Assembly (NCBI GenBank): GCA_038245685.1
Contig: JBBRSF010000001.1
Span: 1-31,551, forward strand
Direction of reading: 5' to 3'
DNA length: 31,551 nucleotides
Source: Minisyncoccia bacterium
GTDB lineage: Bacteria; Patescibacteriota; Minisyncoccia; Phycocordibacterales; UBA9973
Within the stretch, counting starts at the first letter, position 1. Every line of letters starts with the position of its first letter. Made by a program: the position numbers and the translations under genes. This document shows, one piece after another, positions 2,619 through 22,087 of the stretch. The notes under the pieces are model-generated. The model was given only the letters and a program-made list of their open reading frames with translations. It did not search any database and had not been told where the DNA came from.

Positions 2619-3527
2619 TTATGATTCTACCGCAATTTGAGCAAGTTTAATAGCCCCCTCTTTAGACAGTGCTGACGCCATGAAAAGTGCCCTATGACAA
2701 AAAACTGCGTCAGGTACTCCGGTAACTTTCTGCAATTCTTGATCCGTAAGCCCTGCCCATGAGCTTGGTAGGTCTTTCCGGTTCTCGAAATTCTGCGGAT
2801 TCTTTCGCACAGCTTTCACCCCCCAGCCGTTTCCGGCCTTACGCGGAAAGACTACATAAAGGGGCTCCGAAAAATTAACGAGTACGATGTGTTCGAATGG
2901 ATAATTCTTGTCGAGTATAATAATCCTTTTGTCTTTACTCGTTTCGTATGCTTCTAAAACATCTTTTTCTCCTTCAAGAAAACTCTGTGCCTGAAGTATC
3001 TCCCGATCTATAATTTTTCTGGCAAATGAAACGCAATCTAAAAAAATCTCATCCGTCTTCGAATCATCTTCTTTCCACGTTGGCACCATTGAGTGAAAAA
3101 AGGTTTGAATATAATATGGCGTGATTTCGCTTTTTGGAATAGCCAGATCGATGCCATTATCCGCTGCATCAACAGGCGCACAAAGTTTTTTCTGAATTAT
3201 TTCTGCCGCACGTTTCGATCCAGCCAATTTCTCCCCAAACTTTTTCCAGACAAGACCAAAAGAAGAATATTCTATGCCTTGCGGTCCCTGCCCTGCTCCG
3301 CCTATCTGATGATGATCGAATCTGTTTGCGTTTTCATCATATATTCCACCCACATCAAAAAGATAGTCTCCTGTTTTCAACGCTTCCGGGTCTCGGGAGC
3401 GAATTATTTCATAACTTTCGCCCTCTCGCTCGAGCATCATGCCTAAGGCCGCCGCAGAGAAAATATCATCTGCGTGAAATGCTCCGTTGTGGGTTATTAA
3501 CTTTACTACCTTGTTATTGTTGCTCAT
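2619..3527 (-). CDS. MYG1 (UPF0160) family DHH-type exonuclease
   Basis: Motifs THNGAFHADD, DVGG, FDHHQ and FCHRALF. Start moved from 3551 to the ATG at 3527 (MSNNNK), which reduces the overlap with dedA. Confidence 0.9.
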   Translation of the reverse strand: MSNNNKVVKLITHNGAFHADDIFSAAALGMMLEREGESYEIIRSRDPEALKTGDYLFDVGGIYDENANRFDHHQIGGAGQGPQGIEYSSFGLVWKKFGEKLAGSKRAAEIIQKKLCAPVDAADNGIDLAIPKSEITPYYIQTFFHSMVPTWKEDDSKTDEIFLDCVSFARKIIDREILQAQSFLEGEKDVLEAYETSKDKRIIILDKNYPFEHIVLVNFSEPLYVVFPRKAGNGWGVKAVRKNPQNFENRKDLPSSWAGLTDQELQKVTGVPDAVFCHRALFMASALSKEGAIKLAQIAVES

Positions 3528-20016: not shown

Positions 20017-20943
20017 ATGACTTATGACCTAATAATTATAGGCGGAGGGCCAGCTGGCACCGCGGCGGCAGTATATGCAGCAAGGAAGCGTTTAAAGACC
20101 CTTTTTATTACCCAAGAATGGGGTGGACAGAGCGTAGTATCTGAACAAATATTTAATTGGATAGGCACTCCCTCGCTCTCTGGTAACGACCTCGCAGCTA
20201 ATTTAAAAAAACATGTTTTAGCGAACACGGGCGAAAGCCTAGAAATAGCTGAAGGAGAAAAGGTAAACTCTCTTACAAAAAACGGGGATATTTTTTTAAT
20301 GAAAACCGAATCCGGAAAAGAATTTTCTGGAAAAACCGTCCTAATAGCTACGGGAAGTAGCCGAAGAAAGATTACCGCTCTTAATGCAGACAAATTTGAG
20401 AACAAGGGTCTCACCTATTGTGCTTCATGTGATGGGCCTCTTTTTGCAGACATGGATGTGGCAGTGATAGGAGGAGGCAATGCGGGCTTTGAATCAGCTG
20501 CTCAACTACTCGCCTACTGTAAATCTGTAACTCTCATAAACAGAAGCGACACTTTCAAAGCAGATGAAGTAACAGTAGAAAAAGTATTGAGAAATCCAAA
20601 GATGAAGGCCTTAAAGAATATCGAAACTTTAGAAGTAAAAGGAGACAAATTTGTGGAAGGCTTAGTATACAAAGATAGCACAACCGGCGAAACTCACGAG
20701 CTTGCTGTCTCGGGCATCTTTGCGGAGGTAGGACAAATCCCAAATACGGACTTTGTAAAAGGCTTGGTGCCACTCGACGACATAGGCAGAGTCAAGATAG
20801 ACGCACGGTCTCAAAAAACAGAAACAGCTGGAATATGGGCAGCTGGAGACTGCACCAATGTCCTCTATCATCAGAACAACATCGCCGCAGGCGATGCAGT
20901 GCGGGCGCTCGAAGACATATATCTAGCTATTCACGCGAAATAA
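20017..20943 (+). CDS. trxB: Thioredoxin reductase-like FAD/NAD(P)H disulfide oxidoreductase
   Basis: Motifs GGGPAG, redox-active YCASCDG, VIGGGNAG and AAGDC. Start placed at the ATG at 20017, 7 nt after TATAAT (20004-20009). Could be an AhpF C-terminal-like paralog. Confidence 0.8.
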   Translation: MTYDLIIIGGGPAGTAAAVYAARKRLKTLFITQEWGGQSVVSEQIFNWIGTPSLSGNDLAANLKKHVLANTGESLEIAEGEKVNSLTKNGDIFLMKTESGKEFSGKTVLIATGSSRRKITALNADKFENKGLTYCASCDGPLFADMDVAVIGGGNAGFESAAQLLAYCKSVTLINRSDTFKADEVTVEKVLRNPKMKALKNIETLEVKGDKFVEGLVYKDSTTGETHELAVSGIFAEVGQIPNTDFVKGLVPLDDIGRVKIDARSQKTETAGIWAAGDCTNVLYHQNNIAAGDAVRALEDIYLAIHAK

Positions 20944-20990
20944 CAACAAAAAAACCGCTCGTCGAAAGAGCGGTTTTTTTGTTGTTATTT
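20938..20990. terminator. Bidirectional terminator
   Basis: Perfect 23-bp inverted repeat AAATAACAACAAAAAAACCGCTC/GAGCGGTTTTTTTGTTGTTATTT with a 7-nt loop. Confidence 0.9.
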
Positions 20991-20995
20991 AGCTT

Positions 20996-21058
20996 TTATT
21001 TTGCGCAAGTACACGCACTCATCTTATTGCCACAACTAGGGCATGTTGTTTCATCCAT
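20996..21058 (-). CDS. Putative Cys-rich micropeptide, 20 aa (MDETTCPSCGNKMSACTCAK)
   Basis: Manual translation. It has CxxC and CxC motifs and stops 5 nt before the bidirectional terminator. Confidence 0.6.
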   Translation of the reverse strand: MDETTCPSCGNKMSACTCAK

Positions 21059-21147
21059 ATTTTTGAAAGTAATATAATAATCTAAGGGATACGACGACTA
21101 GCGCATCCACACTATTGTAGACGTATGAGATGACAAACCAATACGGG

Positions 21148-21234
21148 CGGAGGCGGTGAGATTTGAACTCACGATTAGTTTTCACCAATGCTGGTTTTCG
21201 AAACCAGTGCCTTCAACCACTCAGCCACGCCTCC
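21148..21234 (-). tRNA. tRNA-Ser(CGA)
   Basis: Acceptor GGAGGCG/CGCCTCC, anticodon arm CTGGT-TTCGAAA-ACCAG, long variable arm, discriminator G. Confidence 0.95.
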
Positions 21235-21284
21235 ACTTAAAATATTTCTCCTAGAATTATACTTCAAGCCAGTGAAAGAACATA

Positions 21285-21325
21285 TTGACTTTTTAGATAT
21301 TTTAGATATAGTTTGCGAGAGGAGG
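21285..21325 (+). promoter_or_regulatory. Promoter and Shine-Dalgarno for the TonB-C-like gene
   Basis: TTGACT, 16-nt spacer, TATAGT. AGGAGG at 21320-21325 lies 7 nt before the ATG at 21333. Confidence 0.65.
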
Positions 21326-21332
21326 AGTGGGA

Positions 21333-21944
21333 ATGAAAACAATACTGATTGCTCTTTGCCTGATCGTGCTGTCGTCAATGCAGGCCGGGGCTACCGAGCC
21401 TCGCTTGATCCAAGGCACCAAACCAAAGTACACCCCTCAAGCGATCAAAATGAACATTGAGGGCACGACGTCCTTTCGAGTAATAGTGGACACCAACGGC
21501 AAGGTGACCGAAGTTACTGAGTTGGTGAGTCACTTCAGAATGAAGACTCGGAAAGAACCTACCGAGTCAGAACTGGCGGAATTCACCAAAGCCAGTATAA
21601 GTCTGGTGACCGCCACGAAAGAAAAGATTCACCAATGGGAGTTTACTCCCGCCTGTATGAACGGCAACGAGACGATGGTAGTCATCGCTATTACCATCGA
21701 GTTTCATTTGCCGCCCCCACGGGACGACTTACAGCAAAAGATTTATCACCTGCCGATCGACGAAGACATCGAAAAAGTTCTTTTGATTCATGTAAAAAAG
21801 GAGAGAACAATGGCTCTGAAAACCACGAGCAAGATTTACGACATTGAGCAACTCGAGAAGGAAATGTTGCAACTGGCGATCCTCGCCACCCGCATTCCCC
21901 CACGCCGACACAAACGTCGGCAAAGAAAAAAGAGGCGACATTAG
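21333..21944 (+). CDS. Exported protein with a TonB C-terminal-like domain and a basic tail
   Basis: Signal peptide MKTILIALCLIVLSSMQAGA. PKYTPQA..MNIEGT..F.V.VD.NGKV and W.FTPA..NG......I.IEF match the TonB_C pattern. Confidence 0.7.
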   Translation: MKTILIALCLIVLSSMQAGATEPRLIQGTKPKYTPQAIKMNIEGTTSFRVIVDTNGKVTEVTELVSHFRMKTRKEPTESELAEFTKASISLVTATKEKIHQWEFTPACMNGNETMVVIAITIEFHLPPPRDDLQQKIYHLPIDEDIEKVLLIHVKKERTMALKTTSKIYDIEQLEKEMLQLAILATRIPPRRHKRRQRKKRRH

Positions 21945-21952
21945 CCTCTATC

Positions 21953-22005
21953 AAACCGCCTGAGAGAAAGCCGACCTGGCACACTCTGCAGGCGGTTTCT
22001 CTTTT
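21953..22005 (+). terminator. Compound terminator
   Basis: AAACCGCCTG/CAGGCGGTTT 10-bp stem around a 26-nt structured loop, then CTCTTTT. Confidence 0.7.
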
Positions 22006-22015
22006 ATATATACAG

Positions 22016-22087
22016 TGACCCTACTGGGAATCGAACCCAGATTGACGGATTGAAAACCCGCTGTCCTAACCGTTAGACGATAGGGCC
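22016..22087 (-). tRNA. tRNA-Glu(TTC)
   Basis: Acceptor GGCCCTA/TAGGGTC, anticodon loop TTTTCAA, T arm CTGGG-TTCGATT-CCCAG. Confidence 0.95.

Follow-up and report, generated by a model that had tools for sequence, protein, structure and literature searches.

Why should a bacterium that probably has a single membrane carry a gene for the C-terminal domain of TonB? The question is raised by an open reading frame (ORF) at positions 21333-21944, plus strand, of a stretch of 31,551 nucleotides from a Minisyncoccia bacterium of the Patescibacteriota (assembly GCA_038245685.1, contig JBBRSF010000001.1, positions 1 to 31,551), here referred to as the window. The ORF has 203 codons, begins with an ATG 7 nt downstream of an AGGAGG core and encodes a protein of 203 amino acids (P0001), whose TonB C-terminal (TonB_C) domain is followed by an extension and a strongly basic tail. 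By analogy with TonB_C proteins of other bacteria we favour, with modest confidence, a role as an accessory, Sec-exported, passive binding module that is not an energy transducer. Sporadic orphan TonB-family genes are of a known kind; new here, in a genome of the candidate phyla radiation (CPR), is a TonB_C protein whose extension and tail are without precedent.

The identity of the domain was examined by profile and by structure. Pfam model PF03544 (TonB_C) matched P0001 with 42 bits against a curated gathering cut-off of 24.6, in two parts covering residues 30-62 and approximately 98-125; in a genome-wide profile search the two stretches together reached 44.4 bits. The NCBIfam TonB models gave partial hits only, all of them sub-threshold. 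AlphaFold2 modelled residues 21-130 with a predicted local distance difference test score (pLDDT) of 95-98, and the top 16 matches of this model in a Foldseek search of the PDB were without exception TonB C-terminal domains, the best being 6i97_D, the Pseudomonas aeruginosa domain bound to FoxA (TM score by target 0.86, root-mean-square deviation 2.0). Structural matches in the AlphaFold DB and the ESM Atlas were TonB_C proteins throughout. An alignment with 44 relatives showed that the near-invariant positions of the family are kept (P31, Y33, A37, G44, G56, W102, P106, G111 and F124), and it placed an insertion of approximately 18 residues between the second strand and the next helix, which in the AlphaFold2 model lengthens strand 2 and the subsequent helix (E57-70, H78-99). 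The edge strand ETMVVIAITIEF is present at the C-terminal side of the domain. As judged from the predicted structure, the TonB C-terminal fold, a three-stranded sheet packed on helices, is confirmed. TonB_C domains bind the extended peptide of a partner through addition to the edge of this beta-sheet.

At the N-terminus, MK is followed by 13 hydrophobic residues and MQAGA, with a hydrophobicity peak of 3.3 (Kyte-Doolittle mean over 11 residues). From sequence alone, its n-, h- and c-regions look right for a Sec signal peptide and match those of a relative, P0004, in which M1, L5, A7, L8, C9, L10, I11 and S15 are identical. Cleavage is predicted after A20, and a type I signal peptidase (Peptidase_S26) is encoded in the genome. 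Neither a twin-arginine motif nor a lipobox was found in the N-terminal region, and a lipoprotein reading of the N-terminus was ruled out, with Leu standing before C9 and the Cys lying too near the N-terminus. The database gene call for this locus (P0002) is 188 amino acids long and starts at M16, and its signal peptide region is hence truncated. We prefer the longer start, which gives 203 amino acids, because a Shine-Dalgarno sequence is present ahead of it and the N-terminus is conserved in P0004.

TonB energy transducers such as those of Escherichia coli and P. aeruginosa have the C-terminal fold, the core residues and the edge strand in common with this protein. However, they also have a transmembrane anchor, a Pro-rich spacer, the ExbB/ExbD motor and client transporters, and P0001 is without all four; it has instead a putative signal peptide, the 18-residue insertion, a helical extension and a polybasic tail. 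No TonB-type anchor was found at the N-terminus, which is a short signal-peptide-like segment (13 hydrophobic residues, then AGA) without His, and no Pro-rich spacer was found between the predicted cleavage site and the domain, where there are only about 10 residues (TEPRLIQGTK). The genome comprises 573,561 bp in 54 contigs and is 92% complete and 1.7% contaminated. It gave no match at E ≤ 1 to ExbB (PF01618) or ExbD (PF02472), and none to the barrel and plug of TonB-dependent transporters (TBDT; PF00593 and PF07715), to Omp85 (PF01103) or to LpxC (PF03331), the outer-membrane barrel search being limited to Pfam families, with non-Pfam barrel folds not screened. Control genomes matched as expected in these searches. 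Given the completeness of 92%, the absence of transporters and of an outer membrane is probable. Because anchor, spacer, motor and clients are all missing, the protein cannot be a TonB energy transducer.

An earlier note, made by a model from the DNA letters without database searches, had described a TonB_C-like domain with an insertion of roughly 20 residues, a cleavable-looking signal peptide, no Pro-rich linker, and no exbBD or TonB-dependent receptor gene in the window. The domain stands on both the 42-bit match to PF03544 and the predicted fold, and the insertion measures approximately 18 residues. The signal peptide is supported by its hydrophobic core and by the alignment with P0004, and the lack of a linker by the roughly 10 residues ahead of the domain. 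What the note had said of the window for ExbBD and receptors now extends, through the Pfam searches, to the whole genome, which without a match to Omp85, LpxC or TBDT gives no sign of a full outer-membrane system.

TonB is generally missing in Patescibacteria (PMC7137472), and incomplete Ton systems occur occasionally in monoderms, where they are thought to be non-functional (PMC12204202). P0001 resembles these incomplete systems, and the orphans of its own clade described below, in being a TonB-family protein without motor or clients. By shape it is nearest to stand-alone or fused TonB_C modules of Acidobacteriota, Bacteroidota and other groups (30-36% identity over the domain), which are annotated as "TonB family protein" or "TonB C-terminal domain-containing protein". 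Examples are the short proteins P0047 and P0088, each a signal peptide joined to TonB_C, proteins with tandem TonB_C domains, and fusions to M56, PilZ, Ank, Sel1 and thioredoxin. Some of these modules consist of a signal peptide and a bare domain. The modules are encoded in unrelated gene contexts, away from ExbBD and TBDT genes. They differ from P0001 in that they sit in the periplasm of diderms, whereas the genome studied here is without outer-membrane markers, and none of them has this extension or tail. None of these proteins has an assigned function.

By analogy with such modules, P0001 would be a soluble protein, secreted by Sec, with the TonB C-terminal domain as its core. Outside the cell it would bind a partner passively by strand addition at the edge of the sheet, and its tail, with a charge of +10, would hold it on anionic polymers, be it the cell wall, a membrane or nucleic acid. 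If made and exported, it would be a TonB-type binding domain outside any Ton system, in a single-membrane cell, and a simple case for asking what stand-alone TonB_C modules bind.

Close relatives of the whole protein are rare. Searches for P0001 in 36 genomes of the same genus, 24 others of the same order and a sample of 400 genomes of the phylum were negative. Contigs of genomes, metagenomes and viruses, scanned with P0001 or with an alignment of P0001 and P0004, yielded no relative, and PHROGs gave no match for P0001. A word-indexed search of 5.8 billion proteins, made with the entire protein and with residues 131-203, recovered in either case only the protein's own record, and an Atlas feature search led to generic TonB_C or unnamed clusters only. 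With HMMER, exhaustive scanning of 1.84 billion representatives produced 682 hits. The 150 listed all fall in the domain region, with 26-40% identity, and many are tandem or fused TonB_C proteins; among the matches listed, only P0004 (140 amino acids, 35% identity) aligns in a single stretch that takes in almost all of the signal peptide and domain (query residues 5-133).

P0004 has the same signal peptide, an insertion matching in size and place, and PPP(P) after the last strand. It ends approximately 10 residues past the domain, without extension or tail, and the neighbourhood of its gene differs. The gene has a TTGACA/TATAGT-like promoter, a strong Shine-Dalgarno sequence and a hairpin after the stop codon. 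It lies on a 1.7-kb metagenome contig (L024), which we assign to a close relative because a neighbouring OmdA-like gene has a product with 78% identity to one of the proteins encoded in the genome studied here. Since P0004 shares the architecture of P0001 at only 35% identity, this architecture appears to have been kept through long divergence, either within or circulating among Nomurabacteria-like genomes.

The part of P0001 beyond the domain comprises the extension (residues 131-188) and the tail (residues 189-203). The extension has an isoelectric point of 5.6 and is modelled by AlphaFold2 with helices at residues 131-137, 144-167 and 171-185 and a pLDDT of 55-82. No homologue of it was found in the HMMER scan of 1.84 billion representatives or in Pfam. 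The content of guanine plus cytosine (GC) at the three codon positions is 0.53/0.16/0.60 in the extension and 0.46/0.42/0.63 in the domain; the extension codes in frame, with a third-position GC content (GC3) like that of the domain. This periodicity, together with base-for-base agreement between assemblies (see below), rules out a frameshift as the origin of the extension. The tail, PPRRHKRRQRKKRRH, has K, R or H at 12 of its 15 positions and a net charge of approximately +10, and it is the most basic C-terminus among the 540 ORFs of at least 100 amino acids in the genome (the runner-up has 8 of 15). Its likeness to residues 49-57 of HIV-1 Tat is confined to composition (R, K and Q in a run, about +10), with no homology, and it is unrelated to the twin-arginine (Tat) export pathway. 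A sorting-signal reading of the C-terminus was rejected as well, the hydrophobic stretch (LQLAILA) being too short.

The tail may be better explained by the DNA that encodes it, as all of its codons fall inside a three-hairpin terminator structure. Folding of the RNA of this region yields -48.1 kcal/mol; the z-score is -8.3 for the plus strand and -4.0 for the minus strand. Hairpin 1, GCCGAC-ACAAAC-GTCGGC (arms 21904-09 and 21916-21), codes for RRHKRR, and an A-run plus the 5' arm of hairpin 2 code for QRKKRR. Hairpin 2 pairs AGAGGC (21931-36) with GCCTCT (21944-49) and has the stop codon in its loop. The terminator proper to the gene consists of hairpin 3 (21953-21998) and, after it, CTCTTTTAT. 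Read on the minus strand, hairpin 2 runs into TTTTTTCTTTG, which makes a terminator-like site (21949-21931) behind the converging tRNA-Glu gene; the A-run encoding KK is the complement of the T-run of this site. CG-rich palindromes give Arg codons on both arms and the A-run gives Lys or Arg, and a polybasic tail is therefore explicable as a frame running into a bidirectional terminator. The tail is thus probably a by-product of the frame entering terminator hairpins shared with tRNA-Glu. This overlap removes the need for a designed Tat-like function, although the tail could still matter for the behaviour of the protein, since any protein made bears it. The case is a caution against inferring function from composition, as a conspicuous peptide feature can arise where a frame overlaps terminator hairpins. 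The extra C-terminal region and the strongly basic ending reported in the earlier note are both real, as a 58-residue extension and the most basic tail of the genome. The local frameshift that the note had considered for the tail is contradicted by an identical second assembly and by the in-frame coding periodicity of the extension.

In base composition the gene is an outlier. Its GC content is 48.8% against 39.6% for the genome, its GC3 is 0.60 against 0.36 (standard deviation 0.06; 98.6th percentile), and an index like the codon adaptation index is 0.599, at the 0.7th percentile in the genome. Among signal-peptide ORFs, however, it belongs to a discrete class: the five with the highest GC3 in the genome (0.54-0.70, the next having 0.44) all encode orphan secreted or lipoprotein-like products and include the TonB_C gene. 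The other four lie in contigs of normal GC (C8:20408-20860, C13:1811-2458, C13:2559-4238 and C40:1713-2408; loci L033-L035). The C13 pair is situated in a block of approximately 2.4 kb at 57% GC, and one of the two proteins has BACON domains; the 215-residue protein of this contig has partial relatives in 3 of 70 genus genomes. The C40 protein had no match in 70 genus genomes and is adjoined by a paralogue with 36% identity. A reading of pure recent import is weakened by the occurrence of P0004 in a close relative and by this GC3-rich class of secreted proteins. The ultimate source would be a TonB_C module of the diderm type, for which the nearest shapes, mostly of Acidobacteriota, are a lead and not a phylogeny.

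The location of the gene was compared among related genomes. In the window the surroundings consist of housekeeping genes, and the order is GreA, YbeY, FtsA, FtsZ, TrxB, tRNA-Ser, the TonB_C gene, tRNA-Glu, UDG, NTP transferase, GDH and TsaD, and the closest relatives of TrxB (approximately 81% identity) are named Candidatus Nomurabacteria, Candidatus Paceibacterota, Minisyncoccia or Patescibacteria group. The TonB_C gene is the sole ORF in the interval between tRNA-Ser(cga) and tRNA-Glu(ttc). As read from its sequence it is a single self-contained unit, with a promoter-like site, a strong Shine-Dalgarno sequence and a hairpin terminator of its own; 1.9 sites of such quality would turn up in the region by chance alone. 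Genomes of the same genus have TrxB, UDG and the genes downstream of UDG at the same locus. Both tRNAs are native to the genus by sequence comparison, tRNA-Glu being identical to that of genome G062 (73/73) and tRNA-Ser nearly so to that of G033 (84/88). What lies between them differs: in G033 the two are 36 bp apart, and in G013 they are separated by 4.1 kb that holds a large serine recombinase (Resolvase, Recombinase and Zn_ribbon_recom domains) and a MazF-like toxin. The interval from TrxB to UDG is variable within the genus, and the gene is a rare accessory insertion in a hot spot. No recombinase among the neighbours, no att-like repeat and no partial tRNA duplicate were found in the window, and a reading of the hairpin after the stop codon as an attC site was rejected on motif inspection, as the core motifs do not fit. 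The isolation of the gene between the two tRNAs, as described in the earlier note, is borne out by ARAGORN and the ORF positions; that it is an accessory insertion at a variable site had escaped that note.

Other features of this locus were seen in the related genomes. The G013 island (L021, C6 806-5075) holds a recombinase of 533 amino acids, with the 3' end of its gene overlapping tRNA-Glu, a MazF/PemK-like toxin and an orphan of 380 amino acids, and a GC-rich inverted repeat of approximately 280 bp (1069-1350 and 3043-3324) flanks the orphan and the toxin. In G062 (L016, C21) tRNA-Glu has the opposite orientation to that in the window, and a second copy of its final 16 nt lies 168 bp away (1988-2003 and 2156-2171), which looks like an integration or excision scar at this tRNA. 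The duplication sits between UDG and the tRNA, where GC is 49% over a length of 650 bp.

Assembly support came from a sediment-metagenome run that contains 98% of the sampled words. A Logan contig of 1,263 bp corresponds to positions 20782-22044 with zero differences and spans the end of trxB, tRNA-Ser, the whole gene and the first 30 nt of tRNA-Glu. Depth was 8.4 over the contig with the gene against 6.8 and 5.8 in the flanks. Because the run may be the source of the genome assembly, this is an independent assembly, not independent data. The Logan graph also offers an alternative path of 127 bp at depth 3.8, which leads leftwards into different sequence and may stem from a co-occurring strain or relative that lacks the insert.

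Orphan TonB_C proteins recur in the clade, which the earlier note, correct on the identity of the domain, had not seen. Of 300 further genomes of the order, 7 had a TonB_C match, as had 3 of 32 further genomes of the genus, with all loci different. Five of these genomes (G884, G919, G905, G911 and G054; 97-100% complete) have neither ExbB nor TBDT. The canonical build of transmembrane anchor, Pro-rich spacer and TonB_C domain is found at L038 (G884:C6), L039 (G919:C4), L028 (G054:C1), L026 and L027. The G884 gene has a native-like GC3 (0.39) and adjoins fusA, the G919 gene is GC-rich, and the G054 gene lies approximately 112 kb into its contig (C1:111837-112067). In G905 (L040, C17 1396-1713) a gene between an agmatinase-like gene and cysS encodes a signal peptide plus TonB_C domain of 105 amino acids in total, by its sequence a second, unrelated stand-alone secreted TonB_C protein in the genus and not a close relative of P0001. 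G911 (L037, C5 1279-2010) has a low-GC gene whose product combines a signal peptide and TonB_C with a C-terminal stretch, which we take to resemble the start of a TonB-dependent receptor plug. The neighbours of this gene look Bacteroidota-like and may reflect contamination of the bin, and some of the hits on tiny contigs (e.g., L030) may be contamination as well. The orphan TonB_C genes of CPR would be either random debris from diderm neighbours or a recurrent episymbiont tool.

Several observations weigh against the passive binding module that we favour, or against the history sketched for its gene. The mechanism is borrowed from the behaviour of TonB_C domains elsewhere. A high GC3 does not prove recent import, and the gene may belong to a clade-resident pool, because the P0004 gene is GC-rich too (53.9% against 44.9% for its contig) and because the genome has a discrete GC3-rich class of secreted proteins. 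A donor could not be named, as among the hits only one protein, from a Bacteroidota metagenome-assembled genome, carries taxonomy, besides the mostly Acidobacteriota clusters of the Atlas, and identities do not exceed 36%. Finally, the Logan graph branches within tRNA-Glu (22015-22044), such that the right-hand junction of the insertion passes through a branch node. This last point bears on whether the 779-bp segment between the tRNAs could have arisen by chimeric joining at conserved tRNA sequences or by contamination during binning, or its tail by a sequencing frameshift. We consider an artefact of this kind highly improbable. The GC content above that of the flanks, the 127-bp path at depth 3.8 and a run that may be the sample behind the genome, hence not independent data, would all agree with it. 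However, the Logan contig runs from inside trxB (20782) into tRNA-Glu with no difference and at a depth like that of the flanks, both tRNAs are the genus's own and the flanking genes are syntenic with relatives, and no indel or variant was seen in the tail, which follows an extension that is periodic in frame.

If the segment is genuine, it might still be a neutral passenger, that is, foreign or pool DNA caught at the tRNA hot spot, whether or not expressed, with no role in this cell and likely to be lost. The 0.57-Mb genome would tolerate little such ballast, and it is difficult to reconcile with a passenger that the frame is intact, with a promoter-like site, strong Shine-Dalgarno sequence, signal peptide and terminator, that the near-invariant core residues are all kept in a very confident model, and that a close relative has a 35%-identical protein with the same signal peptide and insertion. 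Nevertheless, the gene is a near-singleton at a variable location with codon usage at the 0.7th percentile of the genome. TonB_C genes are very numerous in the likely donors, so chance transfers would often carry one, and incomplete Ton parts of monoderms are held to be likely non-functional (PMC12204202). We regard this account as rather unlikely. The earlier note had proposed a host-directed effector. In such a reading the epibiont would release the protein, the tail would carry it onto or across the outer membrane of a diderm host, and the TonB_C domain would bind TonB boxes of host transporters as a decoy or adhesin. The fold is indeed nearest to TonB domains solved in complex with transporters (6i97_D, 2gsk_B and 2grx_C), and the C-terminal edge strand and the core residues of the family are kept. 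The protein looks exported from a cell whose genome holds no TonB-box partner of its own, its tail is the most basic in the genome, and orphan TonB_C genes recur in the clade. In E. coli, moreover, a C-terminal fragment of TonB placed in the periplasm inhibits TonB-dependent uptake. TonB boxes are periplasmic, however, and the delivery route is purely putative; nor does the lineage have to live with a diderm host. Extension and tail are missing from P0004, the only full-length relative, the tail codons coincide with terminator hairpins, and the gene is a near-singleton and not a conserved weapon of the clade. Furthermore, TonB_C is promiscuous and occurs in fusions with many unrelated domains, and its fold therefore does not imply binding of TonB boxes. 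Such an effector appears improbable, and the wider proposal that epibionts repeatedly acquire and export TonB_C as weapons or grapples against diderm hosts, with P0001 as a TonB-box decoy and its tail opening or sticking to the host outer membrane, quite improbable.

Table 1. Features of the TonB_C locus, with positions numbered along the window
Feature	Position	Strand	Basis and remarks
tRNA-Ser(cga)	21145-21235	-	ARAGORN; native left boundary of the insertion
Sigma-70-like promoter TTGACT-16-TATAGT (candidate)	21285-21312	+	Consensus scan, 10/12 positions; pattern match only
Shine-Dalgarno sequence GAGAGGAGGAG, AGGAGG core at 21320-21325	21317-21327	+	Read from the sequence
Predicted Sec signal peptide, residues 1-20, MKTILIALCLIVLSSMQAGA	21333-21392	+	Hydrophobic core; alignment with P0004
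TonB_C domain, residues 21-130	21393-21722	+	Pfam PF03544, AlphaFold2, Foldseek
Insertion of ~18 residues in the domain, roughly residues 66-85	21528-21587	+	Alignment of relatives, columns 101-126
C-terminal extension, residues 131-188	21723-21896	+	Acidic; predicted helical at low confidence
Polybasic tail PPRRHKRRQRKKRRH plus stop codon TAG (21942-21944)	21897-21944	+	
Compound three-hairpin terminator region, common to the converging gene and tRNA-Glu	21904-22007	both	Inverted repeat, RNA fold
tRNA-Glu(ttc)	22015-22087	-	ARAGORN; native right boundary of the insertion

A further inverted repeat of 26 nt, 96% complementary and with A/T runs on both sides, occupies positions 20935-20993 of the window. 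It begins 9 nt before the end of trxB and overlaps the trxB stop codon, and its sequence suggests a strong bidirectional terminator that separates trxB from the tRNA-Ser region.

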